NCBI GenBank assembly: GCA_963815115.1
Contig: CAWFFN010000012.1
Coordinates: forward strand, 32,001 to 96,000
Direction: 5' to 3'
Source: an uncultured delta proteobacterium
GTDB lineage: Bacteria > Desulfobacterota > Binatia > DP-6
Length of the DNA stretch: 64,000 nucleotides
How positions within the stretch are numbered: position 1 is the first letter of the stretch; each line of letters opens with the position of its first letter. Shown here piece by piece: positions 1,460 through 63,638 of the stretch. Made by a program: the position numbers and the translations under genes. The notes beneath the pieces are model-generated. The model saw only the letters and a program-made list of their open reading frames with translations. It made no database searches and was not told where the DNA came from.

Positions 1460-1475
1460 AGCAAGACCGGGGCCA
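1460..1475 (-). promoter_or_regulatory. sigma54 -24/-12 promoter
   Basis: TGGCCCC-GGTC-TTGCT (GG-N10-GC); predicted +1 ~1449, ATG at 1446. Confidence 0.6.
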
Positions 1476-1516
1476 GATGCTCGTGCGAGAATGTGGCCGG
1501 GACACCGCGCGAGACC

Positions 1517-1532
1517 ATTCGAAAGTTGGGAA
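1517..1532. promoter_or_regulatory. Putative bEBP upstream activating site (UAS)
   Basis: ATTCGA-AAGT-TGGGAA, centre ~75 bp from predicted +1. Confidence 0.5.
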
Positions 1533-1615
1533 TCGCCGGCCGCTGGATTCTCGAGGACGACAAAGGCTCAGGGGGTTGCCGGCCGACGATGTCGAACGCG
1601 ATTGCTGCACCACAC

Positions 1616-1975
1616 TCAGGTGGACGCATGCAGCTCGTGCACCAGCGTGTGAAGCAGCTCGTAGTCGAACGGCTTGGACAGGACGACGAGAAACGGGCGG
1701 GCAGCCGCCTCCGCGTCGATGGCGTGCGTCCGGTAGGCGGTCACCAGGACGATCGGCACGCCCGGGCGTGCGGCATGGAACCGGTCGGCGAACGCAACGC
1801 CGTTCTCTCCCGGCATCTCGTAGTCCGTGATGAGCAGCGTGGTGTCGAGGAGCGGCCCCTCTTGGGGGACCTCCCCCGGAAAGGCATAGGCAAACACCTC
1901 GTGACCATCGTCACCCAGCGCCCCGGCGAGGCCCAGGCGAAGGGACGGGTCATCCTCGACCAGGAGGATCGGCAG
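1616..1975 (-). CDS. Response-regulator receiver domain (stand-alone, or frameshifted C-terminus of the upstream kinase)
   Basis: ILLVEDD...LITDYEMPG...VLVTA...LSKPF; no good start codon outside the kinase ORF. Confidence 0.75.
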   Translation of the reverse strand: MPILLVEDDPSLRLGLAGALGDDGHEVFAYAFPGEVPQEGPLLDTTLLITDYEMPGENGVAFADRFHAARPGVPIVLVTAYRTHAIDAEAAARPFLVVLSKPFDYELLHTLVHELHAST

Positions 1976-4133
1976 CTCGCTGCACCTGGGGAGGGGAGGC
2001 GGGGAGTTCGACACGGAAGGCCGTTCCACCTCCCACGACGCGTGCAAGATCGATACCTCCGCCGTGAGCCTGGACGATCTGCTTGGCGATCGCCAATCCG
2101 AGCCCCGTCCCCTCGGGTTTCGTCGTCTCGAAGAGGCCGAAGGGCCGCAGATGGTCGGGGAATCCGGGTCCGGTGTCCGTCACGGTGAATCGCACTTTCT
2201 CGCGGGTGGGAAACTCGACCGACATTCTGATCTCTCCGGGGCCCTGACCGATCGCCTCCAGTGCATTCTTGAGGAGATTGTCGAAAACACGACGCAGCTT
2301 GTCGACGTCGGCGGTGATGGGTGCGATCGTCGAGCTCAGGTGGCCGACGAGTGCGATGCCGCGATGCTGCGCGTCGGGCCGCCAGGCCGCCAGGGACTGC
2401 TCCAGGAAGGCGGGCAGCTCGACGGTGCTCAGCTCCAGCCGCTGCTCGCGCGCGAAGCTCTTGAAGTCGCGAATCATGCCGTCGAGCCGCCGCGTGGTCT
2501 GGGTCAGTTGTTCGATGGCGTCACGCACGCTGCCGAGGGGCTGGTCCGGATCCCGCTCCAGCCGACGGGCGATGCGTTGCGTGAGCATCGAGAGGCCGGC
2601 CAGGGGATTGCCGATGTCGTGGACGATGCGCGCGGAGAGCGCGCCGATGTCCGCCAGGCGCTCGCGCTGGCGAGCGAGCGACTCGGCCTGCCGCAGCTCC
2701 TCCTCGATCTCCTTGCGCATCACGAACTCGCCGATCTGCTGGCTCAGGGCGTCGAAGAGGCCCAGAAGCGCGCGGCCCGGCGCCCGGAGAGCCGAGCTGA
2801 AGCAGACCACCGCGCCGATCACCCCTTCGCGGCTCCGCACCGGGAAGCCGAAGCCGCTCGTGACATGCGTCCCCAACCCGGGTCGCAGCGATCGCCTGGC
2901 AGCGGGATCATTGCCGAGATCGAGCACGTACTCGGGCTTGCCGCTGGCCCAGATGCGGCCGGGAAGCCATTCGCCCCGGACCAGAGTAATCGCGGGAGCG
3001 AGGGCCGTCTGGGCCCCCGACGACAGGGCGGCAGCATGCCACGAGCCGTGGCGGAGCAGGACCGAGTCTCGACGATCGACGAGCCACAGCTCGCTCGCCT
3101 CCAACCCGAGGCGCTCGCAGATGGCGCGGAGCAGCTCGGGCGCGGTGTCCTCCAGCGTGTCGGAGCCGGTCGTGATTCGTGTCACCCCGTACTGGATCGC
3201 CGTGTACTGCTCGGCCTGCCATCGTTCGATCGCTTCGCCCACGATGTGGGCGATCGCCTGGAGGAAGAGCGTATCGTCGGTGGAGAAGGTGCGGTGGTGC
3301 ACGGTGTGGGCGTCGAGCACCCCGTAGGGCCGCTCGAGGAGCGCGATCATGGTGCTGAGGCCCGACACGACCCCGTGCTCGCGGAGAAGCGGGGAGCCCT
3401 CGAAGCGCGTCTCGGTGCGGAGTTCGTCGACCACGACCGGCGTCCTGGTGAGCAGCGTGTAGCCCGCCTGGGAATCCGCTCCCGCGGGAACCAGCGCGCT
3501 CCCGACCACCCTGTCCGTCCAGCCCACGCCGGCGCGGACCAGGAGCGCCGCCTCGTCGGGCAGCAGCTCGGATATCTTGCAGAACTCGACGTCGAGGGTA
3601 CGGGCGACCAGCTCGACCGCCTTCTGGAGGAGGACGTCGAGATCGCTGCCGAGCGCGGCGATTCCCAGCTCGGCGACCGCCTCCTGCTGGCGCACGCGGT
3701 CATGCAGCGTGGCTTCCATACGCGCGCGCTCGCTGACGTCGCGGATGATTGCCGAGTAGCAGACCGTGTCGCCCACCCGTGCTTCCGACACGGACAGCTC
3801 GATGGGAAACGTCTCGCCGCTCTTGCGTCGGGCTTCGACGTGCCGAATGCGGCCGATCGCCTTGGCCTCGCCGGTGTCCCGGTAGTTCGTGAGGAACCGG
3901 TCGTGCTGCTCGCGGTAAGGCGAGGGCATGAGCATCGCGACGTTCTGCTGCAGCACCTCGTCGGCCCGGTAGCCGAAGATCGCCTCCGCGCCGCGATTGA
4001 ACAGCGTGACCCGGCCGCGTGGATCGATGCTGATGATGGCATCCTGCGCGCTGTCGAGCACCGCTTGCCAGCGCGTCGCCTCCAGCTCGAGGAGACGCAG
4101 GGCACGGGTAGCACTCGAGTCCTCGAGAGTCAT
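1950..4133 (-). CDS. PAS(heme, FixL-like)-GAF-GAF sensor histidine kinase
   Basis: PAS MPSPYREQHDRFLTNY...IGRIRHVEARRKSGETFPIELSVSE resembles the FixL heme-PAS with its proximal His; two GAF-like blocks; H-box VHDIGNPL; N box NLLKNALEA; G boxes DTGPG, GTGLGL. Confidence 0.88.
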   Translation of the reverse strand: MTLEDSSATRALRLLELEATRWQAVLDSAQDAIISIDPRGRVTLFNRGAEAIFGYRADEVLQQNVAMLMPSPYREQHDRFLTNYRDTGEAKAIGRIRHVEARRKSGETFPIELSVSEARVGDTVCYSAIIRDVSERARMEATLHDRVRQQEAVAELGIAALGSDLDVLLQKAVELVARTLDVEFCKISELLPDEAALLVRAGVGWTDRVVGSALVPAGADSQAGYTLLTRTPVVVDELRTETRFEGSPLLREHGVVSGLSTMIALLERPYGVLDAHTVHHRTFSTDDTLFLQAIAHIVGEAIERWQAEQYTAIQYGVTRITTGSDTLEDTAPELLRAICERLGLEASELWLVDRRDSVLLRHGSWHAAALSSGAQTALAPAITLVRGEWLPGRIWASGKPEYVLDLGNDPAARRSLRPGLGTHVTSGFGFPVRSREGVIGAVVCFSSALRAPGRALLGLFDALSQQIGEFVMRKEIEEELRQAESLARQRERLADIGALSARIVHDIGNPLAGLSMLTQRIARRLERDPDQPLGSVRDAIEQLTQTTRRLDGMIRDFKSFAREQRLELSTVELPAFLEQSLAAWRPDAQHRGIALVGHLSSTIAPITADVDKLRRVFDNLLKNALEAIGQGPGEIRMSVEFPTREKVRFTVTDTGPGFPDHLRPFGLFETTKPEGTGLGLAIAKQIVQAHGGGIDLARVVGGGTAFRVELPASPPQVQRAADPPGRG

Positions 4134-4287
4134 CGGTGACCAGGTGGCGACGAAGCCGGCGCTACCATGCCCTCGCACGGACGGTCAAGATTGCCACTGG
4201 CGCCGCCCGATCCCGCTGTCGACGGGGTCGACCCGCAGGCCGAAAAGGCGGCTCCGCTATCACGGACCGGAATCCTCCCACGGATGG

Positions 4288-4303
4288 TTCCGACATCCGG
4301 GAA
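4288..4303. promoter_or_regulatory. Putative bEBP UAS
   Basis: TTCCGA-CATC-CGGGAA, centre ~64 bp upstream of predicted +1. Confidence 0.6.
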
Positions 4304-4332: not shown

Positions 4333-4348
4333 TGGCCGGCGGCTTGCT
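4333..4348 (+). promoter_or_regulatory. sigma54 promoter of usp-activator-globin kinase operon
   Basis: TGGCCGG-CGGC-TTGCT; purine-rich SD before ATG 4388. Confidence 0.62.
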
Positions 4349-4387: not shown

Positions 4388-4867
4388 ATGCCTGGAGGCC
4401 TCTTCCGTCACATTCTCGTCCCTCACGACTTCTCCGGCCAGGCGACGGTTGCGCTGAAGACGGCGGCCCAGCTCGCCCAGCAGCAGGGGGGAAAGCTCAC
4501 GGTTCTCTACGTCCTGGTGCCCTTCTACCTGCCGGCCGACGTGCCGTTCGGCATGCCGGCACCAGGCGACCTGATTCCCGAGCAACGACGCACGCTCGAG
4601 AGGCTGGTGACCAAGACTCTGGGCGCCGCGCGCCCGCCGGTGACGATCCGCGTCGACATCGGGGACGCGGCCCAGCGCATCCTCGACGCGGCTCGCGGAA
4701 CCGACAGCATCGTCATGGCGACGTCGGGGCGCACTGGCGTGGCTCACTTTCTCATCGGGAGCGTCGCGGAGAAGGTGGTCCGACACGCCCCGGTACCCGT
4801 GCTCACCATCCGGGTGCCCATCTCCAAGCGTCAATCCAGACGCAGGAAGATTGGCGCGGCTTGTTAG
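4388..4867 (+). CDS. Universal stress protein (single Usp domain)
   Basis: HILVPHDFS; IVMATSGRTG...IGSVAEKVVRHAPVPVLTI. Confidence 0.92.
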   Translation: MPGGLFRHILVPHDFSGQATVALKTAAQLAQQQGGKLTVLYVLVPFYLPADVPFGMPAPGDLIPEQRRTLERLVTKTLGAARPPVTIRVDIGDAAQRILDAARGTDSIVMATSGRTGVAHFLIGSVAEKVVRHAPVPVLTIRVPISKRQSRRRKIGAAC

Positions 4868-4897: not shown

Positions 4898-6225
<1,328 letters not shown>

Positions 6226-6251
<26 letters not shown>

Positions 6252-7542
6252 CGGTCCTCCGCGACCACCGCTGCTCCGCGAGCTGACCGGCCTCGACGCC
6301 GGACAGCAGGCCGAGAGGCTGGCGTACTTCGACATCGGTCCGGCCGACCGGCAGCTCCTGCACGATCTCGCGCCCCTTGCCCGGCAAACCGTCGACGGGA
6401 TCGTCGCGGAGTTCTACGACCACCTGCTCCGATTCCCCGAGCTCGCGCGGTTGCTGCACGAGGAGCCGGGACGGCTCGAGCGGCTCGAGGCGGCCCAGCG
6501 CGCGTACTTCCTGGGCCTCACCGAAGGGCGCTTCGACGAGGACTACTTCGAGACGCGACTTCGCGTGGGAGACGCTCACCAGCGAATCGGTCTCCCTCCG
6601 GCGTGGTATCTCGGCGGCTTCGCGCTCTACCTGCGCCTGTCGTTGCGGGCGCTGATCCGGGAGATCGGCGAAGGCGAGCGGCTGCTGCCGGTCCTCGAGG
6701 CTCTGATCAAGGCGATCTTCCTCGACGTCTCGCTGGCCATGAACACCTACATCTACGGCGGCTTCGTGCAGCGCGAGATGGCGAGCGAGCTGGAGCGCGC
6801 GGCGCAGGTGGCCGAGGAGGCGCTGCGTGCCCACGCCAAGGTCGAGCAGGCGAGGGACGAACTGAGCCGAATGGTGGTACACGATCTGAAGAACCCCGTG
6901 AGCGGGATCGCGATGCTGACCCAGCTCGCGCTCCGCAAGGGTCCGGACCTTCCCGAGGCGCACCGCGGCTATCTCCGCCAGATCGACCGCACCTGCAGCG
7001 AGATGATGCGGCTCATCCAGAACCTCCTCGAGATCGCGAAGATCGAGGAGGAAAGGATGCCCGTCCTGCCCGAGCCGGTGTCGCTGGCCGAGCTCGCGGG
7101 CGAGGTCGTGGAGGAATATGCCGTCGTCGAGCAGGGCCAGCAGGCGGTCCGAACCAACGTGCGGCGCGACGTGCCGCCAGCGTTCGCGGACCGCTGGCTC
7201 CTGCGCCGGGTACTGTCCAACCTGGTGGTCAACGCCATGCGGCACGGCGGCAGCCGCGACGTGCGGGTGGACGCGGCCGAGGGGCCGCAACCGGGAGAGG
7301 TCACCCTGCTCGTCGCCGACTCGGGTCACGGCATCGCGCTCGAGGATCAGGCGCGCATCTTCGAGAAGTTCCCGGGCGGGGGGCGGTCGGCGGTCGACGA
7401 CCCGGCCACGGACCCGGGGCTCGGGCTGGCATTCTGCAAGCTCGCGGTCGAGCTCATGGGCGGTCGGATCGCGCTCACCAGCCGCCCCGGAGAGACGGTG
7501 TTCGTGGTCACGCTGCCGGCCCGCGATCCCGCAGCCCCCTGA
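6226..7542 (+). CDS. Globin-coupled sensor histidine kinase
   Basis: Protoglobin/HemAT-like domain (EFYDHL, RVGDAHQRIGLPPAWYLGG); H-box VHDLKNP; NLVVNA; DSGHG; GLGLAF. Confidence 0.88.
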
Positions 7543-7570: not shown

Positions 7571-7586
7571 TTCCGATTCCTGAGAA
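7571..7586. promoter_or_regulatory. Putative bEBP UAS
   Basis: TTCCGA-TTCC-TGAGAA, centre ~95 bp upstream of +1; weaker copy at 7603-7618 (~63 bp). Confidence 0.6.
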
Positions 7587-7646
7587 GGAAGCTGCCACGG
7601 CCGCCGCGACGTTCGGAATTCGCCTCGTGCTGCCGTGCTCCTTGCG

Positions 7647-7662
7647 TGGCAAGGTATTTGCC
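7647..7662 (+). promoter_or_regulatory. sigma54 promoter
   Basis: TGGCAAG-GTAT-TTGCC; predicted +1 ~7673, ATG 7675. Confidence 0.7.
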
Positions 7663-8992: not shown

Positions 8993-9008
8993 AGCACGTC
9001 ACGTGCCA
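8993..9008 (-). promoter_or_regulatory. sigma54 promoter
   Basis: TGGCACG-TGAC-GTGCT. Confidence 0.7.
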
Positions 9009-9037: not shown

Positions 9038-9053
9038 TTCGCACGCGTCGGAA
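9038..9053. promoter_or_regulatory. Putative bEBP UAS shared by divergent promoters
   Basis: TTCGCA-CGCG-TCGGAA; ~64 bp from left +1 and ~75 bp from right +1. Confidence 0.62.
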
Positions 9054-9094: not shown

Positions 9095-9110
9095 TGGCAC
9101 GGCACTTGGA
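9095..9110 (+). promoter_or_regulatory. sigma54 promoter (GG variant at -12)
   Basis: TGGCACG-GCAC-TTGGA; predicted +1 ~9121, ATG 9124. Confidence 0.62.
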
Positions 9111-9594: not shown

Positions 9595-10804
9595 ATGGAC
9601 TTCGCCATCCCCGAAGAGATCGAGCACCTCTGTGACGGCGTACGCCGGTTCATGGAGGAGCACGTCTACCCGCTCGAGCGCGCGGCGCGTGGCTGGAAGC
9701 TGGAGGTCGGCGGCCCGGCCTATCCGCCGCTGATCAGGGAGGTGCAGCGCGCAGGCGAAGGCGCTGGGATACTGGGCATTCCACCTCCCGGCCGAAGCCG
9801 GCGGCGCCGGCATCCCGTTCATGTACTACGTGCTCGTGAACGAGATCCTCGGACGCAGCCCGCTCGCCCCGGTGTGCGTCGGCTCGCAGGCGCCCGACTC
9901 CGGCAACGCCGAGATCCTCTGGCGCCACGGCACCGCGCAGCAGAAGGCAGCGCTGGCTCCGGCCGCTGGTCGACGGCGAGATCCGCAGCTGCTTCTCGAT
10001 GACCGAGCCCGAGGTGGCCGGTTCCGATCCGCAGCTGCTGCGCACGACCGCCGTGCGCGACGGCGATCGACTAGGTGATCAACGGTCACAAGTGGTTCAC
10101 CAGCGGCGCGCACGGCGCGGCGTTCGCCATCGTCATGGCGATGACGAACCCCGAGCACGCGAACCCGTACCTCCGCTTCAGCCAGATCATCGTGCCGACC
10201 GACACGCCCGGCTTCCGCATCGAGCGCGGCATCCCGGTGATGGGCGACGACGACAACCATCACGCCGAGATCCGGTACGAGGACTGCCGCGTGCCGGTCG
10301 ACCAACCTCCTCGGCCGCGAGGGCATGGGCTTCGTGATCGCGCAGGAGCGCCTGGGACCGGGTCGGATCCATCACTGCATGCGCTGGCTCGGCGTGGCCC
10401 AGCGCGCGTTCGAGATGATGTGCAGCTACGCCAACGAGCGCGAGATGTTCGGCAGCACGCTGGCGCGCAAGGCGAACATCCAGGACTGGGTCGCCGAGAG
10501 CCCGCGCGGACATCCAGGCGGCGCGGCTGATGACGTTGCACGCGGCGTGGAAGATCGACACCGAGGGCGCCGGCGCGGCGCGCGAGGAGATCGCCCTCAT
10601 CAAGTTCTTCGGCGCCAAGCGTGCTGCACGGCGTCGTCGACAGGGCCATCCAGGTCTTCGGCGCCGCCGGGAGTGACCGAGGATCACCCGCTCTCGATGT
10701 TCTACCGCCAGGCGCGCCTCGCGCGCATCTACGACGGCCCCGACGAGGTGCACAAGATGGTGGTCGCCCGCCGCATCCTGGCGCGCCATGCCTCCCGGGG
10801 CTGA
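9595..10804 (+). pseudogene. Acyl-CoA dehydrogenase broken by about 7 frameshifts (pseudogene or sequencing errors)
   Basis: Consecutive ACAD segments in shifting frames: MDFAIP, APDSGNAEIL, FSMTEPEVAGSDP, INGHKWFTSGA, QERLGPGRIHHCMR, ARIYDGPDEVHK. Confidence 0.85.
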
Positions 10805-11894: not shown

Positions 11895-11910
11895 TTCCGA
11901 TGGGTAGGAA
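11895..11910. promoter_or_regulatory. Putative bEBP UAS
   Basis: TTCCGA-TGGG-TAGGAA, centre ~74 bp upstream of +1. Confidence 0.6.
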
Positions 11911-11949: not shown

Positions 11950-11965
11950 TGGCGGGTCGGTTGCT
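11950..11965 (+). promoter_or_regulatory. sigma54 promoter
   Basis: TGGCGGG-TCGG-TTGCT. Confidence 0.62.
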
Positions 11966-14888: not shown

Positions 14889-14904
14889 TGCATCCGACGT
14901 GCCA
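14889..14904 (-). promoter_or_regulatory. sigma54 promoter
   Basis: TGGCACG-TCGG-ATGCA; predicted +1 ~14878, ATG 14876. Confidence 0.7.
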
Positions 14905-14923: not shown

Positions 14924-14939
14924 GTCGCAGCGATGAGAA
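14924..14939. promoter_or_regulatory. Putative bEBP UAS
   Basis: GTCGCA-GCGA-TGAGAA, centre ~54 bp from +1. Confidence 0.55.
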
Positions 14940-15065
14940 TGTGCTGCTCTCCGTTCGCATCACTCGTTGGCTCGGCGGGCGGACGCGCCCACCGGACTCG
15001 GGCGCGCCGGATCGCCGTACCGCGGGCCGAGCCCGACTCAGAAATCGGATCGAAGCGAGCAGGCG

Positions 15066-15081
15066 GTCGCAGATGTGGGAA
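15066..15081. promoter_or_regulatory. Putative bEBP UAS
   Basis: GTCGCA-GATG-TGGGAA, centre ~75 bp upstream of +1. Confidence 0.62.
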
Positions 15082-15121: not shown

Positions 15122-15137
15122 TGGCAAGATCCTTGCT
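15122..15137 (+). promoter_or_regulatory. sigma54 promoter
   Basis: TGGCAAG-ATCC-TTGCT. Confidence 0.72.
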
Positions 15138-15225: not shown

Positions 15226-16914
15226 ATGCTCACTGCTTCCGGGGATGCGACGAGAGTGCGGCGGCCGCCCCTCGCGCTGGGCCGCGACGAGACCGTGGCC
15301 GCCGACCAGGCAGCGCTCGTGCGCGCGCTCACGGATCCATCATTCTACCCGCATGGCCCCTCGCGGGTTGAGCACGTGCAGACGCACATCTCCCACGTCT
15401 TCCTGGCCGGGCCGTACGCCTACAAGCTCAAGAAAGCGGTGCGGTTCCCGTTCCTCGACGCCAGCACGGCGGCGCGGCGGTGCACCCTGTGCGAGGACGA
15501 GCTCCGGCTCAACGGCCGCCTCGCGGCTCCCATCTACCTCGGCGTGCTGCCGATCACGCGCGAGCCGGACGGTCGCCTGGCGCTCGACGGAAGCGGCCCG
15601 GTGGTCGATCGGGTCGTCTGGATGCGGCGCCTCCCCGACGGGCGCATGCTCGATCGCCTGGTCGCGGGCACGGCGGTCGACGCCGACATGATGGGAAGGC
15701 TCGCACGCATGCTGGCCGACTTCCACGCCGGCGCACCGGCTGGCCCGGAGGTCGCGGCCCATGGTGCGCCCGAGGCCCTCCTCGCCGCCTGGCGTCAGGT
15801 ACTCGGGCTCGCGGCTCCGCTCGTCGGCGGTCCGCTACCTCCGGCGGCGCACACCATTCTCGCGGCCTTCGGTCCCGCCTTCGTCACGCGTCACGATGCC
15901 CTGCTGCGAGGTCGCCAGGCCGCCCGCCACATCCGCGAGGGACACGGCGATCTGCGTGCGGAACACGTCTGTGCCATCGACACGCCCGTGCCTGCTGCCC
16001 CGCCGCACGCCCCGCTCATGCCGGGCATCTACGTCATCGATTGCGTCGAATTCTCGCAGCCGCTGCGCTGCAATGACGTGGCCTCGGAGGTCGCGTTCCT
16101 CGCCATGGATCTCGGCCGGCTCGGCCGGCCCGACCTGGCGGAGGCGTTCGTCGACGCCTACGTCGTCGCGAGCGGCGACCGGCAGCTGCGCGCGTTGCTC
16201 CCCTACTATTGTGCCTACCGGGCGTGCGTCCGCGGGGCGATCGAGGGACTCAAGTCCGTCGAACCGGAAGTCGAGCCGGCCGAGCGCGCGGCCGCGACGG
16301 CGCGCGCCAGGGTGTACTTCGGGCGGGCGCTTCGCCACGCCTGGGAAGCGCAGCTGCCGGCGGTGCTCGTCTGCTGCGGACTCAGCGGCAGTGGCAAGAC
16401 GGCGCTCGCCGCCGCGTTGTCGGAAGCGACGGGCTTCGTCCATCTCAGCACCGACGGGCTGCGGAAGCAGCAGGCATCCGGTGCGACCGCTGCGCCCTAC
16501 GGCGCCGGCCGCTACACCCGGGCGGCACGAGCGGCAGTCTACGCCCGCCTGTGCGCCCAGGCGGACGCCGCGCTCGCGTCGGGAAGCGGCGTCGTGGCGG
16601 ATGCGACGTTCATCCGTCGGCAGGACCGTCAGGCCCTCGCGGCCGTTGCCGCCCGGCACCGCCGTCCGGTGCTCTTCCTCGAGTGCGAGGCCGATCCGCA
16701 CACGATCCGCCGGCGGCTGGAGGCCCGGCGCGGCGGCCTCTCGGACGCGCGCTGGGCAACACACCTCCGCCAGCGCGAGGAGCGCGAGCCATTCGGCCCG
16801 CAGGAGACGCACCGCACCCTCGACACCGGACGCGACCTGCACGACGTGCTCGAGGAGCACCTACCGGCCATCTGGCGGTGGAGTGCGGCGCACGCGGCGA
16901 GCGCCAGGCCGTGA
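15226..16914 (+). CDS. Bifunctional aminoglycoside-phosphotransferase-like/AAA protein (Rv2004c-like)
   Basis: QTHISHVFL, AYKLKK, EGHGDLR, IDCVEF; C-terminal Walker A GLSGSGKT, DATF; GGAGG SD. Confidence 0.88.
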   Translation: MLTASGDATRVRRPPLALGRDETVAADQAALVRALTDPSFYPHGPSRVEHVQTHISHVFLAGPYAYKLKKAVRFPFLDASTAARRCTLCEDELRLNGRLAAPIYLGVLPITREPDGRLALDGSGPVVDRVVWMRRLPDGRMLDRLVAGTAVDADMMGRLARMLADFHAGAPAGPEVAAHGAPEALLAAWRQVLGLAAPLVGGPLPPAAHTILAAFGPAFVTRHDALLRGRQAARHIREGHGDLRAEHVCAIDTPVPAAPPHAPLMPGIYVIDCVEFSQPLRCNDVASEVAFLAMDLGRLGRPDLAEAFVDAYVVASGDRQLRALLPYYCAYRACVRGAIEGLKSVEPEVEPAERAAATARARVYFGRALRHAWEAQLPAVLVCCGLSGSGKTALAAALSEATGFVHLSTDGLRKQQASGATAAPYGAGRYTRAARAAVYARLCAQADAALASGSGVVADATFIRRQDRQALAAVAARHRRPVLFLECEADPHTIRRRLEARRGGLSDARWATHLRQREEREPFGPQETHRTLDTGRDLHDVLEEHLPAIWRWSAAHAASARP

Positions 16915-17358
16915 ACAGAGACCGAGGCCCCGGACCCACCGCCGCGCCCTGTGCACGACCCCGGCAATCGCTCGCGCCGCCTCCCGGGAGGGTGCGCTCG
17001 AGGGCGCACCGATCTCGATGCCGAGCAGCCGGCCGTGCGCCGGCAGCCGACCGAGCGCGTCCGCGAGCTGCAGGGCCTCCGCGACTCCCAGGTCGTGCGA
17101 CGAGACCGGCCGAAGGAAGGAGCCCGGCAGCTTCCGGAGGTCGAGATCGTGAATGGTTCCGGGCGGAGCGCCCGAGCGCACGGCGTCGATGACGAGGGCC
17201 GCCTCGACGCCGTCCAGGAGCTCGATCAGGCCGGCGCCGGGACGATCGGCGACCACCACCTCCACGCCGGGCGGGGGGTCCTCGGCGAGTTGGCGCGCCG
17301 CCGCGAGACCGCAGGCGTCGTCCCCGAACGGGCTGCCGGTGCCGATGATGCGGATCAT
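16861..17358 (-). CDS. Hydrogenase maturation protease
   Basis: IIGTGSPFGDDACG, LVIDAV, SSHDLG; last gene of the hydrogenase operon. Confidence 0.85.
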   Translation of the reverse strand: MIRIIGTGSPFGDDACGLAAARQLAEDPPPGVEVVVADRPGAGLIELLDGVEAALVIDAVRSGAPPGTIHDLDLRKLPGSFLRPVSSHDLGVAEALQLADALGRLPAHGRLLGIEIGAPSSAPSREAARAIAGVVHRARRWVRGLGLCSRPGARRVRRTPPPDGR

Positions 17359-18659
17359 CGCCGCTCGATCGTGAGATCGAGAAAGTGCGTCGCGCACGAG
17401 ATGCAGGGGTCGTAGCTGCGGATGACCATCTCGCACCGGCGGGTCGCCTCCGCACGGGAGAGCGGCAGGATGGCGGGGACGAGGGCGCGCAGGTCGGCTT
17501 CGATCTGCGCCTGGTTCTGGGCCGTGGGTGGCACGATGTGCGCGCTGCGGATCATCCCGCGCTCGTCCGTCTCGTAGGCGTGGTAGAGGCTGCCGCGGGG
17601 GGCCTCGGTGACGGCGCGGCCGACGCCGGCACGGGGCGTCCAGCTCGCCGCCGGAGCGACGGGTGGCTCATAGGTGTCGATGATCCGGATGGCCTCCTCC
17701 ACGCCGTAGAAGATCTCCAGCGCGCGCGCCACGATGCTGACGGAGGGATTGCTGCTCGGCCAGGCGACGTGTGTCTCGCGTGCGACCTCCGTCACGGCGG
17801 GGCCGAGCTCTTCGAAGTTGAGGTTCACGCGAGCGAGCGGACCGAGGAGGTAGGGGCCACGGCCCTTCACCGTCGCATGCAGCGCGTTGGAGTACGGAAC
17901 CTGGTGCTCCGCGAAGACGTCCCCGAACTCGTCCTGGGCGCAGTCGATGCCCTTGTTCGACACCATCCGGCCCTCGTTCATGGGGTATTCCCCGGGCTGG
18001 CGAAGCGACACGAATTCGATGTCCAGGTCGCGATCGGGGAGATCGAAGCCGGAGACCCAGCGGACGGCGGCCCGGGCGTCCTCGCGGGCGCGCTCGAGAT
18101 CGGCACGCGTTCCGGCGAGCTCCGCGGGCCGCGGCGCGCGCGTGAACCCGCCGATGCAGGCGCTGACCGGGTGCACCGAGCGTCCTCCCAGGAGCGCGAT
18201 GATCGCATTGCCCGCCTTGCGCAGGCGGAGTCCGCGCTCGACGGCTGCGCGATCCTTCTGGGCCAGCGTGATGGCGCTCTCGCAGCCGAGGAAATCGGGC
18301 GCCGCCAGCATGAACACGTGGAGCGCGTGGCTCTCGATCCACTCGCCGCAGTAGTAGAGGCGGCGTAGAGCGCGCACCGCCGGGTCGATCGCGACGCCGA
18401 ACAGCCGCTCCAGGGCATGCACCGCGCTCATCTGGTACGCCACCGGACAGATGCCGCAGATGCGAGCCGTGAGGTCGGGGGCCTCGGCGGCGTGTCGGCC
18501 GCGCAGCAGGGCATCGAAGAAACGCGGCGGCTCGAAGAGCGCGAGGCGCAGGTCGACGACCCGGTCGCCCTCGACGGCGAGGTGCAGCGAGCCGCCACCC
18601 TCGACCCGGGAGAGCGTGTCGACGCGGACGATCCTACGCTTTGCCCTTGTCGATGGCAT
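17355..18659 (-). CDS. Group 3b [NiFe]-hydrogenase large (alpha) subunit
   Basis: RVEG, L1 RICGIC, EAPRG, L2 DPCISCATH plus short cleavable tail. Confidence 0.93.
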   Translation of the reverse strand: MPSTRAKRRIVRVDTLSRVEGGGSLHLAVEGDRVVDLRLALFEPPRFFDALLRGRHAAEAPDLTARICGICPVAYQMSAVHALERLFGVAIDPAVRALRRLYYCGEWIESHALHVFMLAAPDFLGCESAITLAQKDRAAVERGLRLRKAGNAIIALLGGRSVHPVSACIGGFTRAPRPAELAGTRADLERAREDARAAVRWVSGFDLPDRDLDIEFVSLRQPGEYPMNEGRMVSNKGIDCAQDEFGDVFAEHQVPYSNALHATVKGRGPYLLGPLARVNLNFEELGPAVTEVARETHVAWPSSNPSVSIVARALEIFYGVEEAIRIIDTYEPPVAPAASWTPRAGVGRAVTEAPRGSLYHAYETDERGMIRSAHIVPPTAQNQAQIEADLRALVPAILPLSRAEATRRCEMVIRSYDPCISCATHFLDLTIERR

Positions 18660-19410
18660 CGCCGCTCTCGCGCCACGGCTGCACGTACCCGTTGATGGCG
18701 CGCAGGCGCTGGACCGCGTCCGTCCGATCCAGCCCCTGGGCGTGCAGCAGGCCCGTGAAGGCCGGCATGTTGGGATCGTCGGCCGGGCCGAAGCAGCCGT
18801 AGCACCCGCGGCCCAGACGAGGACACAGCGCGCCGCAGCCGGTCCGTGTCACCGGGCCGAGGCAGGGTTCGCCGCGCGCCACGACGACACACACGTTTCC
18901 GGCTCGCTTGCACTCCATGCACACGCTGAAGGCGGGCAAGAACGGGCGCGCTCCCGACAGCAGGGACCGGACCACGGCGAGGAGTTGCTGGGTGTCGATC
19001 GGGCAGCCCCAGATCTCGAAGTCCACGCGGACGTGTTCCGAGATGGGGGTGGACGTGGAAAGCGTCTCGACGAACTCGGGGCTGGGATACATGGCGCGCT
19101 TGTACTCCTCGACGTCGGACCAGTTTCGCAATGCCTGGATGCCGCCGGCGGTGGCGCACGCGCCGATGGTGACGAGATATCGGCTCTCCGCCCGCACCTC
19201 GAGTATGCGGCGCGCGTCGTGCGCGGTGGTGATGCTGCCCTCGACGAAGGCGATGTCGTAGGGGCCGTGCAGCGCACGGCTGCGCACCTCCGGGAAATAC
19301 GCGACGTCCACCTGGCGCGCGAGGGTGAGCAGTGCTGCCTCCGCGTTGACGAACTGCAGCTGGCAGCCGTCGCAGGACGCGAACTTGAAGACGGCCAGGC
19401 GCGGCTTCAT
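18634..19410 (-). CDS. Group 3b hydrogenase small (delta) subunit
   Basis: KFASCDGCQ, VEGS, GACATAGG, GCP, CMEC..C, CLGPVTRTGCGALCP, CYGCFGP. Confidence 0.92.
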   Translation of the reverse strand: MKPRLAVFKFASCDGCQLQFVNAEAALLTLARQVDVAYFPEVRSRALHGPYDIAFVEGSITTAHDARRILEVRAESRYLVTIGACATAGGIQALRNWSDVEEYKRAMYPSPEFVETLSTSTPISEHVRVDFEIWGCPIDTQQLLAVVRSLLSGARPFLPAFSVCMECKRAGNVCVVVARGEPCLGPVTRTGCGALCPRLGRGCYGCFGPADDPNMPAFTGLLHAQGLDRTDAVQRLRAINGYVQPWRESGDAIDKGKA

Positions 19411-20234
19411 AGATTGCCGATCCCGAACAGTCGCTTCACCGCCGTGTACTGGAACACCGGCCCGTCCTTGCAGACGAAGTGCGGGCCGAACTGACAGTGC
19501 CCGCAGAGCCCGATCGCGCACTGCATGTGACGCTCCATGGACAGGTACACGTTCTCCTCGCTGATCCCCTTGGCGCACAACGCGCGCACGGCGTAGCGCA
19601 TCATCACCTCCGGGCCGCACATCATGACGACCGCGGATGGCTGGGCCGTGACCTCGTCGAAGAGGTTGGTCACCACGCCGACGCGGTAGCGCCAGTTCGC
19701 GTCGGGCCGGTCGGCGGTCAGGTAGACCTTCGTGCGCGGGTGCCGGCGCCAGGCCTCGAAGCGCTCGCGGTAGAGGAGATCGCGGGGCGTCTTCACCCCG
19801 TGCAGGATGTGGAGCGTCCCGTAGTCGTCGCGGCGGCGGAAGATGTACTCGATGACGCCGACCGCGGGGGCGCAGCCGAGGCCGCCCGTGACGATGACCA
19901 CGTCCCGCCCGCGGGCGGCCTCCATCGGCCAGCCCCGGCCGTACGGGCCGCGCACCCCGGCCACGTCGCCGACCTTCCAGCGTCCCATCACGCTCGTCAC
20001 CCGGCCGACGGCGCTGATCGTGTGCTCGAGCACCGTCGGCTCGTCGGGGTCCGAGACGATCGAGATCGGCACCTCGCCCACGCCGTAGGCGTACAGCATG
20101 TTGAACTGGCCGGCGGCGAAGCGATAGGCGCGCCTCACCGCGGGATCGACGAAGCGCATGGTGAAGGTGTGGATGTGCTCCGCCTCGACACGATGCGCGA
20201 CGATGCGCGCCGGATGAAAGGCATACGGGGTCAT
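19407..20234 (-). CDS. Group 3b hydrogenase gamma subunit (FAD/NAD(P), 2Fe-2S)
   Basis: GQFNML, RGPYG, GGLGCAP, MCGPEVMM, MQCAIGLCGHC...CKDGPVF. Confidence 0.92.
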   Translation of the reverse strand: MTPYAFHPARIVAHRVEAEHIHTFTMRFVDPAVRRAYRFAAGQFNMLYAYGVGEVPISIVSDPDEPTVLEHTISAVGRVTSVMGRWKVGDVAGVRGPYGRGWPMEAARGRDVVIVTGGLGCAPAVGVIEYIFRRRDDYGTLHILHGVKTPRDLLYRERFEAWRRHPRTKVYLTADRPDANWRYRVGVVTNLFDEVTAQPSAVVMMCGPEVMMRYAVRALCAKGISEENVYLSMERHMQCAIGLCGHCQFGPHFVCKDGPVFQYTAVKRLFGIGNL

Positions 20235-21376
20235 CCGCCGTGCCGCCGGTCGCGTTCGGCGCGGATGGCTGCCACCTCCTCGGTGAGATCGATGCCCACG
20301 GGGCACCAGGTGATGCAGCGGCCACAGCCGACGCACCCGGAGGTGCCGAACTGGTCGATCCACGAGGCGAGCTTGTGCGTCAGCCACTGGCGGTAGCGGT
20401 CGTGGATGCGCGGGCGGAAATTCTTGCCGTGGATGTGGGAGTGCTCCAGGGAGAAGCACGAGTCCCACTGGCGAACCCGCTGGCTCATGTTGCCGTCGAG
20501 CTCGGTCTGATCGACCACCGTGTGACAGAAGCAGGTGGGACAGACCATGGTGCAGTTCGTGCAGGAGAGGCAGCGCTGGGCGACGTGGTCCCAGCGCGGG
20601 CTCTCGGCCTCGTCGTAGAGCAGCCCGGGAAGGTCCGAGGTGTCGAGGCGACGCTGCATGCTCGCGGCGCAGCTCGCGATGCGCGCCCTTGCCTCGGCGG
20701 CCTCGGCCGCGGCCGGCGTCTCGGGCACGAGGGCTGCAAGGATCGCGTCGCCTGCCGGCGACCCGCTCTCGACCAGGAACGCGTCCTCCAGCTCGGTCAG
20801 CGCGAGGTCATGGCCGCGGGTGGCCTCGGGGCCGGTGCCCATCGACGTGCAGAAGCAGGTCGCCGCCGCGCGCGTGCAGTTGACGGCGATCAGCACGACG
20901 TGCTCCCGGCGGGCGGCGTAGTGGGCGTCGCGGACGCGATCGTGCAGGAAGATGCGGTCCTGGACGGCCAGCGCCGCGAGATCGCACGCTCGCACCCCGA
21001 TGAAGGCCAGCGGCGCGGGAGAGGGCATCACCTCGTCGACGACGAAACCGCGCCGCTGCTTGCGCACCTCGAGCAGCGGCTCCTCCGGCGCGAAGAACGA
21101 CGGCTTCAGCGACCCGGGCCCGTTGACGACGCCGAAGACCTCGCCCGCGACGCCCGCCACCAGCCGGTAGCGGCCCGGTTGCTGCTGCTCACGCAGCCCG
21201 ACCGGCAGGTCCGCCACCTTGCGGACCTCGTCGAAGACGACGCCGCCGTCGCGGGGCACCGGACCGAGGACGCGGAAGCCTCGTTCCCAGAGGTGCTCGA
21301 TCAGGTCCTCGAGCCGCGCTTTCGCCAGCCGCCACACCGTCCGGGATCGATCGTCGTTCTCGGTGGGGGAATTCAT
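20231..21376 (-). CDS. Group 3b hydrogenase beta subunit (4Fe-4S dicluster)
   Basis: GVRACDL, CFC, CLSCTNCTMVCPTCFC, WDSCF, GCVGCGRCITWCP. Confidence 0.92.
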   Translation of the reverse strand: MNSPTENDDRSRTVWRLAKARLEDLIEHLWERGFRVLGPVPRDGGVVFDEVRKVADLPVGLREQQQPGRYRLVAGVAGEVFGVVNGPGSLKPSFFAPEEPLLEVRKQRRGFVVDEVMPSPAPLAFIGVRACDLAALAVQDRIFLHDRVRDAHYAARREHVVLIAVNCTRAAATCFCTSMGTGPEATRGHDLALTELEDAFLVESGSPAGDAILAALVPETPAAAEAAEARARIASCAASMQRRLDTSDLPGLLYDEAESPRWDHVAQRCLSCTNCTMVCPTCFCHTVVDQTELDGNMSQRVRQWDSCFSLEHSHIHGKNFRPRIHDRYRQWLTHKLASWIDQFGTSGCVGCGRCITWCPVGIDLTEEVAAIRAERDRRHGG

Positions 21377-21523
21377 GGTGGCCCGCGTCGGCGCACTCTA
21401 TACCATATACCATTCGCGAATCGTCTCGAACACGAAGAGAGCCCGTGTGGTGTGGCCGTCGGCTGCCCTCCTTGACCCGACTCGGACCGTACGGGGATAA
21501 GCTCACGGAGTGGTACGGCATAG

Positions 21524-27502: not shown

Positions 27503-27518
27503 AGCACGCGGCATGCCC
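27503..27518 (-). promoter_or_regulatory. sigma54 promoter
   Basis: GGGCATG-CCGC-GTGCT; predicted +1 ~27492, coincident with ATG 27493. Confidence 0.55.
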
Positions 27519-29325: not shown

Positions 29326-29345
29326 CGGAAAGGCGGGGAGGATCG

Positions 29346-44250: not shown

Positions 44251-44287
44251 TTCCCATGTGTGCGAGGGATATTCCGGTTTGTACGAA
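44251..44287. promoter_or_regulatory. Tandem putative bEBP UAS pair
   Basis: TTCCCA-TGTG-TGCGAG (44251-44266, ~96 bp) and TTCCGG-TTTG-TACGAA (44272-44287, ~75 bp), 21 bp apart. Confidence 0.6.
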
Positions 44288-44328: not shown

Positions 44329-44344
44329 TGGCACGCGACCGGCA
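44329..44344 (+). promoter_or_regulatory. sigma54 promoter of cytochrome c-PFOR operon
   Basis: TGGCACG-CGAC-CGGCA. Confidence 0.6.
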
Positions 44345-50806: not shown

Positions 50807-52705
50807 CTACCGGCGCATCGCGGACATCTGCAACGGTCGGAGCATCGCGCGCTTCTTGTTCTGGTGTGCCTGCATGCGGCGCAGGATGTCGTCGAGCACC
50901 CGCACCGCGCTGGTGAGGTGGGCGCCCTTGTTGAGCATCACGCACTCCGCGCGCTCGCCCATCGCCGCGTCGGTGATCTCGGCACGCGACGGGGTCCCGG
51001 TCTTGGCGAGATTCTCGAGGACCGCGGTGGCCCAGATGACCGGAACGTGCGCCGCCTCGCACATCCAGAGCATCTCTTCCTGTACCTCGGCGAGGCGCTC
51101 GTAGCCGCACTCCACGGCGAGGTCCCCGCGCGCGATCATCACACCGATGGCTTGATTGTGCATCGCCGCGAGCAGCAGGCTCGGCAGGCGATCGAAGGCG
51201 GCGCGGGTCTCGATCTTGAGGACGATGCCGAGGTGCTCGGCATCGAGGCGCCGGAGCTCCGTGCGGAGGTCGCGCACGTCCTCGGGCCGGTTCACGAACG
51301 AGAGACCGACCATGTCGGCGAGACGCACGACGACCGCGAGATCCGCGATGTCCTTCGCGGTGAGCGCCGGCAGCCGCAGCGAGCTGTCCGGCAGGTTGAT
51401 CCCCTTGTCGGCACGCAGCTTGCCGCCATCGGGTGGAACCTGGGTGATCCGCACCCGGAGCCCCTCGGCGTCGCTCGCGTCCACGATGCCGCCGATCTTG
51501 CCGTCGTCGAACCAGATGCGCTCTCCCGGGCGTACGTTGCCCAGGACCTGCGGCAGGGTGCACGGGATGGATGCCGGTCGGAGGAGCGTCCCGTCCTCGC
51601 CATGGCGTGCCGGTCGTCCGGGAGCCGGATCGCGCGTCACCACCAGCGTGTCGCCGGTTCCGAGGAGCAGGAACGCCGCATCTGCGGGGAGGGCGCCGAT
51701 CCTGGCGTCGGCGCCCGCTCCCGCCTCGGCGCCCGAGGTGTGGCGCAGCTCGACCGGCTCGCCGGCATCCAGGTACGCCGTCTGCTCGGCCAGCGCCCAG
51801 CGACCCCCCCGCGCCCCCTCCCCGACGGTCAGGTGCCGTGGCTTGCCGCGCAGGTCGTGCAGGACGAGGCGGTCACCCTGGGAGAGGCGTTGGCCCCAGC
51901 CCTCCGGCACGGTGAGCACGCCCTCGGCCCGCCCGGGCGGCGGCACGGGGGCTTCACGTGCCGTCAACCAGACGCGTGCCGGCGAGATCACCTCGCCACG
52001 GACGTTGCGCTTCGGGCGCCACCTGAGCACCTGCGATTCGGGTGCGATCGGCCCCGTGCGGAGCTTGGGACCGGCGAGATCCATCAGGACACGACAGTCC
52101 CGGCCGAGCGCGGAGCGCGCGGCCGCGAGATGGGCCACCATCGCCGCCCACGCCTCCGGACCGTCGTGGGCACAGTTGATCCGCGCGCAGTCCATGCCGT
52201 TGGCCAGCAGCTCGTGGATCAGTGTCCCGTCTTCTGCTGCCTCGCTCGGCATCGTCACGAGGATACGAACCGCCCGCCCGGGCGGCTTCGACCCGAGCAG
52301 TGCGGCCGTATGCTGGTGAAGGAGGGCCTTGCCGGCCGCAAAGTCCACCGCGTCGCCGTCCGTCCCCGTCCAGCGCCGGCCGACCAGATGGTGCAGGATC
52401 TTCAGGACGGTGACCAGGTTGTCGAGCACGTGGGCTTCGGTGCGTCCGAGCGAGGACAGGCCGAGCGAGGCGAGGCGCTTCTGGACCTCTCGGATGTCGT
52501 GCTGCCGCAACGCCACGTAGTGCAGGAGGTTCCGCGCGCTGTCGCGATAGGACTGATGCTGGTCCCGGAGATCCTCGTCGAGGGCATGCTCCACGAGAAG
52601 ACAGCGGGTACGGGTGGCCTCGAGCTCGTCGATGAGCTCTGCCAGCACGTGGGAATCCCACGGAACGGCCGCCTCGAGCACGGCTCGACGGAGTGCATCA
52701 GCCAT
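50807..52705 (-). CDS. pyk: Pyruvate kinase (long form with enlarged B domain)
   Basis: RINCAHD, MDLAGPKLRTG, KGINLP, LKIET, MIARGDLAVE, WATAVLE, ECVMLNKG. Confidence 0.88.
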   Translation of the reverse strand: MADALRRAVLEAAVPWDSHVLAELIDELEATRTRCLLVEHALDEDLRDQHQSYRDSARNLLHYVALRQHDIREVQKRLASLGLSSLGRTEAHVLDNLVTVLKILHHLVGRRWTGTDGDAVDFAAGKALLHQHTAALLGSKPPGRAVRILVTMPSEAAEDGTLIHELLANGMDCARINCAHDGPEAWAAMVAHLAAARSALGRDCRVLMDLAGPKLRTGPIAPESQVLRWRPKRNVRGEVISPARVWLTAREAPVPPPGRAEGVLTVPEGWGQRLSQGDRLVLHDLRGKPRHLTVGEGARGGRWALAEQTAYLDAGEPVELRHTSGAEAGAGADARIGALPADAAFLLLGTGDTLVVTRDPAPGRPARHGEDGTLLRPASIPCTLPQVLGNVRPGERIWFDDGKIGGIVDASDAEGLRVRITQVPPDGGKLRADKGINLPDSSLRLPALTAKDIADLAVVVRLADMVGLSFVNRPEDVRDLRTELRRLDAEHLGIVLKIETRAAFDRLPSLLLAAMHNQAIGVMIARGDLAVECGYERLAEVQEEMLWMCEAAHVPVIWATAVLENLAKTGTPSRAEITDAAMGERAECVMLNKGAHLTSAVRVLDDILRRMQAHQNKKRAMLRPLQMSAMRR

Positions 52706-52739
52706 GCCACCCCGGAAATGCAGACCCCCGGGGGCGAGT

Positions 52740-52755
52740 TTCCCAAGTGTGAGAG
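52740..52755. promoter_or_regulatory. Putative bEBP UAS
   Basis: TTCCCA-AGTG-TGAGAG, centre ~75 bp upstream of +1. Confidence 0.62.
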
Positions 52756-52796: not shown

Positions 52797-52812
52797 TGGA
52801 GCGTCGCTTGCT
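52797..52812 (+). promoter_or_regulatory. sigma54 promoter
   Basis: TGGAGCG-TCGC-TTGCT; predicted +1 ~52823, ATG 52822. Confidence 0.62.
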
Positions 52813-54973: not shown

Positions 54974-54989
54974 ACCAAACGCCGTGCCG
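54974..54989 (-). promoter_or_regulatory. sigma54 promoter (GG variant at -12)
   Basis: CGGCACG-GCGT-TTGGT. Confidence 0.55.
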
Positions 54990-55030: not shown

Positions 55031-55046
55031 TTCCCACGCATGCGAC
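55031..55046. promoter_or_regulatory. Putative bEBP UAS
   Basis: TTCCCA-CGCA-TGCGAC, centre ~75 bp from +1. Confidence 0.62.
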
Positions 55047-55119
55047 GCGGGCGTCCGGCGTGAAGCACGCCTGGGAATGGTGCCACCCCGGAGGGGCCCT
55101 GACACGCAGAAGTCGCAGG

Positions 55120-58873: not shown

Positions 58874-58889
58874 GTCGCATGGATGCGAA
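58874..58889. promoter_or_regulatory. Putative bEBP UAS
   Basis: GTCGCA-TGGA-TGCGAA, centre ~75 bp upstream of +1; another copy TTCTCG-TCTC-TGGGAA at 58744-58759 near the CoA-transferase start. Confidence 0.62.
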
Positions 58890-58929: not shown

Positions 58930-58945
58930 CGGACCGGATATTGCT
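58930..58945 (+). promoter_or_regulatory. sigma54 promoter
   Basis: CGGACCG-GATA-TTGCT; predicted +1 ~58956, ATG 58961. Confidence 0.55.
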
Positions 58946-63468: not shown

Positions 63469-63490
63469 AAAGGACACCGGTCGTTTTTCG

Positions 63491-63506
63491 AGCAAGAAGC
63501 GAACCG
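63491..63506 (-). promoter_or_regulatory. sigma54 promoter
   Basis: CGGTTCG-CTTC-TTGCT; paired degenerate UAS ATCCCA-TTTC-TGGAAC at 63546-63561 (~74 bp). Confidence 0.5.
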
Positions 63507-63576
63507 CTCGGGAAGGCAAGGGACCTGCGCCCGCGGGGCGGCTCCATCCCATTTCTGGAACGAGCCAGCCGCCGGG

Positions 63577-63592
63577 TTCTCACCGCCGGGAA
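63577..63592. promoter_or_regulatory. Putative bEBP UAS
   Basis: TTCTCA-CCGC-CGGGAA, centre ~64 bp upstream of +1. Confidence 0.6.
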
Positions 63593-63622
63593 CGGCAGTG
63601 CGGGCCCTCCGCCCCCGTGCCA

Positions 63623-63638
63623 TGGCACGGCTCGTGCA
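63623..63638 (+). promoter_or_regulatory. sigma54 promoter
   Basis: TGGCACG-GCTC-GTGCA; predicted +1 ~63649, ATG 63651. Confidence 0.7.

Follow-up and report, generated by a model that had tools for sequence, protein, structure and literature searches.

Binatia are widespread, uncultured bacteria that have been described as aerobic methylotrophs and alkane degraders. A 64,000-nucleotide stretch of the genome of one such soil bacterium (G000:C12:32001-96000, from an assembly of 6.9 Mb in 12 contigs; hereafter the window) carries many sigma-54-type promoters with a 16-bp palindrome close upstream, and raises the question of what controls them. An earlier note on this DNA proposed a window-wide sigma-54 regulon with enhancers at helically phased positions, bound by an activator encoded at 4898. 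That a regulon with helically phased sigma-54 enhancers is real and lineage-wide is confirmed below; what the earlier interpretation missed is a two-site architecture, a pair of heme-sensor kinases, targets related to hypoxia and dormancy, and the spread of the system across Binatia. The reading that we favor, at a probability of roughly 65%, is a low-oxygen (hypoxia/dormancy) sigma-54 regulon of the class Binatia, run by the activator at 4898 and two heme kinases.

Palindromic sites and sigma-54 promoters in the window

Each of the 15 palindrome coordinates listed earlier carries the motif TTCNSA-N4-TSNGAA: three fit it exactly, nine have one mismatch, and those at 1517, 44272 and 63546 have more. 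Two further one-mismatch copies lie at 2197, in coding sequence, and at 58744, where there is no good promoter. Copies with at most one mismatch are almost all intergenic (13/14), at a density of 3.9 per kb compared with 0.016 per kb of coding DNA, and 300 dinucleotide shuffles of the intergenic DNA gave a mean of 0.2 copies and a maximum of 3, where 13 were observed. Thus, the motif is enriched over both coding and shuffled sequence. The spacer is also specific, with 14 matches for a 4-base spacer and 0-1 for spacers of 1-3 and 5-8 bases.

Loose matches to GG-N10-GC number in the hundreds in the window, which is 71% GC. Of sigma-54 promoters with a nearby site we count 17, rather than the 16 noted before. 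The distance from site centre to +1 (throughout, a predicted start site) is 73.5-75.5 bp in 11 of them, 63.5-64.5 in four, 53.5 in one and 94.5 in one, and further sites lie at 95.5 and 96.5. This recount reproduces the distances given before, except that the proposed class at about 54 bp is a single outlier, the case at 14924, whose site lies 28.5 bp from the first G of the promoter; we treat it as an outlier because in none of 124 promoters from related genomes is the best site closer than 37.5 bp to that G. Four sites or site pairs sit between divergent promoters, in phase with both.

Although many operons are included, to call the regulon window-wide was an overstatement. A good site and a good promoter are both lacking at the hydrogenase operon, at the operon heads 9595 (acyl-CoA dehydrogenase) and 43831, and at the acyl-CoA ligase (21524), and the regulon therefore falls short of the whole window. 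Membership of the hydrogenase operon and the ligase was considered and found no support, as 21330-21560 contains no site or promoter.

Helical phasing and paired sites across Binatia

Scores of sites inside the window are circular, because the scoring matrix was trained on these same sites. Our independent tests of phasing therefore used G000 outside the window and a comparison set of 60 related Binatia genomes, which are kin and thus not independent samples. Counts of the strict palindrome alone were too noisy in lower-GC relatives, and we used in their place a fixed motif-plus-promoter pattern in which the gap could vary between 28 and 76 bases. Elsewhere in G000, 27 of 31 site-promoter pairs fall within 2 bp of the same 10.6-bp phase, so that the spacing rule holds beyond the window; the genome as a whole has about 47 such pairs. 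The relatives yielded 121 pairs from 37 of the 60 genomes, with distances to the first G that cluster at 37.5-39.5, 48.5-51.5, 59.5-61.5, 69.5-72.5 and 78.5-82.5 bp. The best period is 10.6 bp, with an R of 0.71, compared with a maximum of 0.33 in 10,000 uniform draws, and when each genome contributes a single pair the mean R is still 0.66. Although the genomes are kin, the genes downstream of the phased pairs are diverse. In 201 Myxococcota genomes the pattern did not rise above background: it matched 17 times, and the reversed control 29 times.

The enhancer in fact consists of a pair of sites with a spacing of 30-32 bp. This was examined in a pooled set of 124 promoters at 78 loci, made up of the regions around most of the 121 pairs, 22 activator loci and five loci of the relative G039. 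A second site lies 30-32 bp from the best one in 68 of the 124 promoters, while control offsets gave 2, 1, 0 and 5, and a weak partner is present in a further 17. Within the 68 pairs the proximal site is centred at 37.5-41.5 bp in 24 and at 47.5-51.5 bp in 22. The promoters share the consensus TGGCACG-N4-TTGCT (selected with the window-trained matrix), and their spacers average 69% GC. An exact consensus for integration host factor (IHF) occurs in 0/124 spacers, a weak test of low power. In the window, too, most apparently single sites have a weaker partner 31-32 bp away (at 1548, 4257, 7603, 15035, 27528, 55062 and 63546/63577). The sites and promoters are as follows, with distances from site centre to the first G of the promoter in bp:

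1517-1532, enhancer, with weak partner 1548-1563; promoter 1461-1474 (minus strand), 50.5/81.5
4257-4272 (weak) and 4288-4303 (strong), tandem enhancer, putatively autoregulatory; -24/-12 promoter 4334-4347 (plus), 38.5 for the strong and 69.5 for the weak site; operon of universal stress protein (USP), activator and globin kinase
7571-7586, enhancer, with half-site partner 7603-7618; promoter 7648-7661 (plus), 69.5/37.5; CBS protein next
9038-9053, between promoters 8994-9007 (minus), 38.5, cytochrome c, and 9096-9109 (plus), 50.5, CBS protein
11895-11910; promoter 11951-11964 (plus), 48.5; patatin-like gene
14924-14939; promoter 14890-14903 (minus), 28.5, the outlier; phosphoribosyltransferase and tandem USP
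15035-15050 and 15066-15081, tandem; promoter 15123-15136 (plus), 80.5/49.5; AAA_33 protein
27559-27574, with partner 27528-27543; promoters 27504-27517 (minus), 49.5, wax ester synthase/diacylglycerol acyltransferase (WS/DGAT), and 27616-27629 (plus), 49.5, acyl-CoA dehydrogenase, polyketide synthase (PKS), carboxylase and phosphopantetheinyl transferase (PPTase)
44251-44266 and 44272-44287; promoter 44330-44343 (plus), 71.5/50.5; small open reading frame (ORF; cytochrome c-like by eye, no family match), pyruvate:ferredoxin oxidoreductase (PFOR), dihydroorotate dehydrogenase-like and TreT-like genes
52740-52755; promoters 52695-52708 (minus), 39.5, pyruvate kinase, and 52798-52811 (plus), 50.5, methyltransferase
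55031-55046, with weak partner 55062-55077; promoter 54975-54988 (minus), 50.5/81.5; WS/DGAT
58874-58889; promoter 58931-58944 (plus), 49.5; two WS/DGAT genes
63546-63561 and 63577-63592, tandem; promoters 63492-63505 (minus), 48.5/79.5, beta-lactamase-family hydrolase, and 63624-63637 (plus), 39.5/70.5, WS/DGAT

The 31 pairs of G000 outside the window include further phased clusters at C5:14-90 kb, C5:1786-1795 kb and C9:1928-1933 kb. In G039, a genome of 55% GC, the CBS, USP and HSP20 genes at three loci (L105-L107) are preceded by very strong tandem sites at a spacing of 30-32 bp.

The activator at 4898

Which protein binds the motif? G000 has rpoN (PF04552, E 2.6e-61) and about 37 near-complete sigma-54 activator domains. 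The candidate proposed before lies in an operon behind its own phased sites:

4388-4867, plus strand, USP (Pfam Usp), first gene of the operon
4898-6250, plus strand, NtrC-type activator (REC-AAA-HTH), with its helix-turn-helix (HTH) out of frame in the assembly

Its nearest named relatives are from Candidatus Binatia, and its receiver, its AAA+ domain (with GAFTGA) and a Fis-type HTH can all be found. Orthologs, such as the 87% identical one at locus L002, are intact at 447-458 aa, with an intact HTH in 22/22, whereas the window copy changes frame at about residue 407, where the assembly has one extra base near 6114-6117. A 239-bp short-read contig that covers 5976-6205 is one base shorter at 6117 and differs at one further position; this is a single contig of depth 5, possibly from the source sample. 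The frameshift thus looks like an assembly error.

A second usp-activator cassette at C5:13358-14646, about 87% identical and with its own site at 37.5 bp, has lost residues 163-310 in frame. Its C-terminal piece lies at C5:1779723-1780009, beside a duplicated ORF, and transposase-like ORFs occur near the first piece. The HTH at C5:1779834 was considered as a stand-alone repressor and rejected, as it is a fragment of this decayed duplicate.

In a quick tree of 141 AAA domains of at least 225 aa, the Binatia activators group in one clade (23 rows, SH-aLRT 98), and the recognition helix LG.(S/G/A)LSSLYRK is invariant in 22/22 orthologs. An HTH model built from these 22, which they match by construction, was used at a threshold of E <1e-18. 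It matches 37 of the 60 relatives, only members of the class among 301 genomes of the same phylum, and 0/201 Myxococcota genomes. The strict motif-plus-promoter pattern occurs in 31 of the 37 HTH-positive genomes (109 matches) versus 6 of the 23 HTH-negative ones (12 matches). Site and promoter head the activator operon in 11 of 22 orthologous loci; the USP gene lies directly upstream of the activator in seven, and one gene further up in L006. This co-occurrence, together with the site and promoter before the operon, supports the earlier proposal that the activator binds the motif and regulates itself through the site at 4288, and we infer that the activator is the probable binder.

Two variants of this locus were seen in relatives. 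A 505-aa relative (P0086) shares the C-terminal region (86% identity) and carries a GAF domain where the receiver would be, a hint that the activator may also exist in one-component form. At L014:11203-12216 and L015:7967-8980 an AurF-like di-iron protein, with its own phased promoter, lies between activator and globin kinase.

Two heme-sensor kinases beside the activator

The signal may be sought in the genes that flank the activator, which include two putative heme sensors:

1616-2014, minus strand, single-domain receiver (Pfam Response_reg), downstream of the FixL-type kinase
1950-4130, minus strand, FixL-type kinase (heme-PAS, GAF, GAF, HisKA, HATPase; Pfam), the proposed activating sensor
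6226-7542, plus strand, globin-coupled histidine kinase (protoglobin-HisKA-HATPase; Pfam)

The best PDB matches of the PAS domain are to FixL (E 3e-23), and it keeps the positions of the proximal, heme-ligand His and of the distal Arg. The clade of this kinase is found in 15 of the 37 relatives that have the activator and in 0 of the 23 that lack it, and a heme-type PAS with the ligand kept in 11 of 17 kinase loci from relatives. We found no promoter that would drive the kinase from the site at 4288. The single receiver downstream of it is possibly a phosphate sink. Paralogs of 1616-4130, again a FixL-type PAS kinase beside a single receiver, lie at C8:557571-559130.

The globin domain matches HemAT, a Geobacter globin and AfGcHK (5OHE). 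Its Tyr64 and His118, as well as the kinase His219, are invariant in 11/11 globin kinases, and the kinase carries a D-x-x-N motif compatible with phosphatase activity. A protoglobin domain occurs in 25 of 37 activator-positive genomes and in 0 of 23 negative ones; in 21 of the 25 it lies no more than about 2 kb from the activator. Both flanking kinases have the same specificity helix, HD..NP..G..MLTQ after the phospho-His, which suggests that they share one receiver. Two heme-type sensors through which hypoxia might induce the regulon are present.

Target genes and start codons

Phased promoters in the window precede genes for USPs, CBS proteins, an AAA_33 protein, a phosphoribosyltransferase, five WS/DGAT proteins, the PKS-carboxylase cluster, PFOR, a TreT-like protein and pyruvate kinase. 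In the relatives 106 first genes were called, of which 100 were scanned for families here and six separately. The 100 comprise 11 CBS, four hemerythrin-CBS, nine USP, three HSP20, three PCMT, three radical SAM, two HPF and two PFOR genes, and 34 with no family; CBS, USP, hemerythrin-CBS or HSP20 thus account for 27/100. AAA_33, PFK and WS/DGAT are other target families in relatives.

At 27649-43806 a single phased promoter precedes genes for an acyl-CoA dehydrogenase, a PKS of the iterative type (2729 aa), a biotin carboxylase/carboxyltransferase fusion (1853 aa) and a PPTase; with the five flanking WS/DGAT genes these possibly form a pathway for storage or wax lipids. A 110-aa ORF at 1114-1446, also under a phased promoter, has no NCBIfam match, and its 98-aa core no Pfam match. 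Among the genes without a site or sigma-54 promoter, 16861-21376 encodes a four-subunit NAD(P)-linked, sulfhydrogenase-like [NiFe] hydrogenase and a maturation protease, all below equivalog cut-offs. The acyl-CoA dehydrogenase at 9595-10804 is apparently split over three frames, and 25273-25950 is an isolated C-terminal fragment of a cation-transporting ATPase; both could reflect assembly indels or decay.

Many of these genes seem to start almost where their transcripts would. Among 106 promoters of relatives, 41 are followed by a long ORF whose first ATG falls between -2 and +5 relative to the predicted start, which would leave no room for a ribosome-binding site. Of the sigma-54-like promoters in G000 that have an ORF, 9 of the 17 with the motif and 16 of the 73 without it show an ATG at -2 to +6; since motif-free promoters also show it, it is partly a trait of the lineage. 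Start codons at such positions in the window are those at 9124, 14876, 27493, 52681, 7675 and 1446. These positions suggest leaderless or near-leaderless sigma-54 mRNAs in Binatia.

A proposed low-oxygen switch and its alternatives

Based upon these genes and sites, the regulon could work as follows. When O2 leaves the heme, the FixL-type kinase (1950-4130) would phosphorylate the activator (4898-6250), and the globin-coupled kinase (6226-7542) would act on the same receiver, either by phosphorylating it too or by dephosphorylating it in an O2-dependent way. Two activator dimers would occupy TTC(C/G/T)CA-N4-TG(G/C/A)GAA sites three helical turns apart, the nearer one 38, 49, 60 or 71 bp upstream of the -25 G and always on one face of the helix. 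Given this single-face placement, we propose that sigma-54 at the promoter is within reach of the AAA+ ring, the spacer between them being short and GC-rich; in the shortest spacing class, 29-31 bases separate the edge of the site from the -25 G. A single palindromic site could serve two divergent promoters. The activator would induce its own operon, a positive feedback, and also genes for nucleotide-sensing stress proteins, lipid storage and anaerobic carbon flow. The sign of this response is inferred from the FixL domain and the targets, because FixL and the globin kinase AfGcHK have opposite O2 signs: FixL is reported to phosphorylate its partner when O2 is unavailable (PMC13327599), while Anaeromyxobacter AfGcHK is reported to autophosphorylate with O2 bound (PMC6211767).

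Several observations, the sign of AfGcHK among them, weigh against this mechanism. The G000 assembly contains no intact activator gene. The strict pattern is missing from six of the 37 activator-positive genomes, and five of 37 show neither sensor. The FixL-type kinase is present in only 3 of 24 genomes of the same family, and the globin kinase may therefore be the sole sensor in most close relatives. Phased sites also occur without an activator ortholog in G039, G020 and G004, whose completeness by markers is 100% (350 contigs), 100% (270 contigs) and 89%; G039 even has a textbook tandem-site regulon with CBS, USP, HSP20 and AAA_33 genes, and neither the activator nor its sensors were found there. 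An unassembled locus would be the simplest reading of these ortholog-free, site-bearing genomes.

They could instead mean that another of the roughly 37 activators in G000 binds the motif and that the gene at 4898 is merely a regulated member, since a site upstream of a regulator shows regulation of it rather than binding by it. In both G039 and G020, however, orthologs at 60% identity or more were found for only four G000 activators; these four also occur in G008, which has no exact palindrome, and three in the pattern-negative G001. No better-fitting G000 activator emerged among those compared (19/19, 30/35, 30/34 and 30/37 activator loci), and G039 and G020 lack both sensors as well, as expected if one locus went unassembled. 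We regard a different binder as distinctly unlikely. That the regulon is real in the lineage and orphaned in this strain, its activator truly lacking a DNA-binding domain, would fit the frameshifted window copy and the deleted, split copy on C5. It is very unlikely given the nearly identical short-read contig without the extra base, the frameshift splits in several other genes of the assembly, and sites that are still strong and in phase. Chance matching in GC-rich intergenic DNA, for which the abundance of loose GG-N10-GC matches could be cited, has a negligible probability, being refuted by the shuffles, the spacer comparison and the out-of-sample phasing; the Myxococcota background and the counts of paired sites also speak against it.

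With the same activator and motif, the input could still be something other than O2 limitation: the system might be on with O2, or answer to NO, CO, redox state or general stress. This would be in line with the O2-bound activity of AfGcHK, with the lack in G000 of a full-length NmpS or NmpT match that could invert the signal, and with USP, CBS and HSP20 as generic stress genes; heme sensors are also described as binding CO and NO, in a source on DosS (PMC8125079). It is set against the FixL-type heme ligand kept in most kinase loci, a globin-kinase motif that would presumably allow phosphatase activity, and targets that include PFOR, cbb3-type cytochrome c domains and hemerythrin-CBS proteins, as well as a radical SAM protein whose second-best model, below cut-off, is heme b synthase. 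We consider such an input unlikely and retain the low-oxygen switch run by the activator at 4898. A bolder version, which we offer tentatively as a doubtful possibility, is that Binatia independently built a DosR-like dormancy switch on sigma-54, with heme kinases of matched specificity, paired close sites that need only the correct helical face and no IHF-bent loop, and many essentially leaderless mRNAs.

Relation to known systems

Neither the motif nor a Binatia regulon was found in the literature searched, which leaves most subscription journals outside its coverage, and the main text of the main Binatia genomic survey does not contain "sigma", "regulat", "hypox" or "dorman" (PMC8262859). 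Each mechanistic element has a precedent, while the wiring seems undescribed. The analysis supplies a regulator, a motif and a target list for how Binatia may survive when oxygen is low, together with a marker for scoring in metatranscriptomes. The natural promoters, over 100 of them in discrete spacer classes, also make a library for asking how close a sigma-54 enhancer may lie and whether looping is needed.

At glnAp2 the NtrC sites lie at about -108 and -140, 32 bp apart. A review places sigma-54 enhancers in general about 100-150 bp upstream (PMC7057263), whereas in Desulfovibrio vulgaris the largest share of sigma-54 promoters is reported within 100 nt of the nearest activator site (PMC4641369). 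In the Vibrio LuxO-qrr system, as described in PMC4740811, activator sites are likewise in tandem and enhancer-promoter distances cluster about 11 bp apart; loops there are about 80-120 bp with phased A/T tracts, while the proximal centre in Binatia is mostly at -63 to -76. The earlier description of the enhancers as unusually close is thus only partly borne out: the large class centred at -63, in which no IHF sites are apparent, lies towards the short end of the range, but helical phasing was already known from qrr, and activator sites less than 100 nt away from D. vulgaris.

With FixL-FixJ of rhizobia the system shares the heme-PAS sensor domain and its ligand residues (PDB 1D06, 1DP6). The whole kinase scores 183.6, far below the NCBIfam FixL equivalog cut-off of 850, and its proposed partner is an NtrC-type activator rather than FixJ/FixK, its neighbors being a single receiver and an NtrC-type protein.

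NmpRSTU of Myxococcus xanthus is described as a hypoxia-induced, autoregulated combination of globin-coupled kinase, NtrC-type activator and sigma-54 (PMC11841059, PMC6211767), with CBS, USP and cbb3-related targets and two-site promoters whose sites lie 14-15 nt apart (29-30 bp centre to centre by our calculation), the proximal one essential (PMC11841059). It differs in scale, with seven promoters reported for NmpR (PMC11841059) compared with about 47 site-promoter pairs in G000, and in motif, GCGCA-N5-TGCGC as given there versus TTCNCA-N4-TGNGAA in Binatia. All eight near-matches to the NmpR motif in the window are inside called genes, and the enriched spacer is 4, not 5. As a stand-in for NmpR we used the NtrC-type protein of an Archangium metagenome-assembled genome (L104), identified by synteny: nmpU-nmpT-nmpS are complete and the NtrC-type gene is convergent. 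Its recognition helix is ISVRKIQYRL, and it falls outside the Binatia clade in the 141-row quick tree, whose deep nodes are weak. The window globin kinase is 26% identical to the Archangium NmpU candidate, with different residues in the dimerization and histidine phosphotransfer domain. Where NmpRSTU has NmpS/NmpT, the Binatia system has a FixL-type kinase; in tblastn against G000, NmpS matched through its generic kinase part alone, and NmpT had no match at E 1e-12. Membership in NmpRSTU was rejected on the activator tree, the motif spacer, the missing NmpS/NmpT and the absence of the HTH model from all 201 Myxococcota genomes.

DosR (DevR) of mycobacteria is a LuxR-family regulator that works with a sigma-70-type polymerase. 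In the DosS/DosT-DosR system, two heme kinases are reported to feed one regulator, whose boxes are also tandem, helically phased, strong plus weak, and common to divergent promoters; overlapping target families are USPs, HspX-like proteins, Tgs1-like WS/DGAT, phosphoribosyltransferase and P-type ATPase (PMC3177182, PMC7753917, PMC8125079). The proximal DosR box lies 33-34 bp from the start site (PMC3177182). DosS and DosT have GAF hemes, whereas the Binatia system pairs an AAA+ sigma-54 activator with PAS and globin sensors. Considered as a DosR/DevR member, it was rejected: in place of a LuxR-family DosR and an 18-bp Dev box it has a sigma-54 activator and a 16-bp palindrome. The likeness to DosR is convergence, not homology. 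Beside DosR in mycobacteria and NmpR in myxobacteria, Binatia would connect the same set of hypoxia genes in a third way, apparently arrived at independently.

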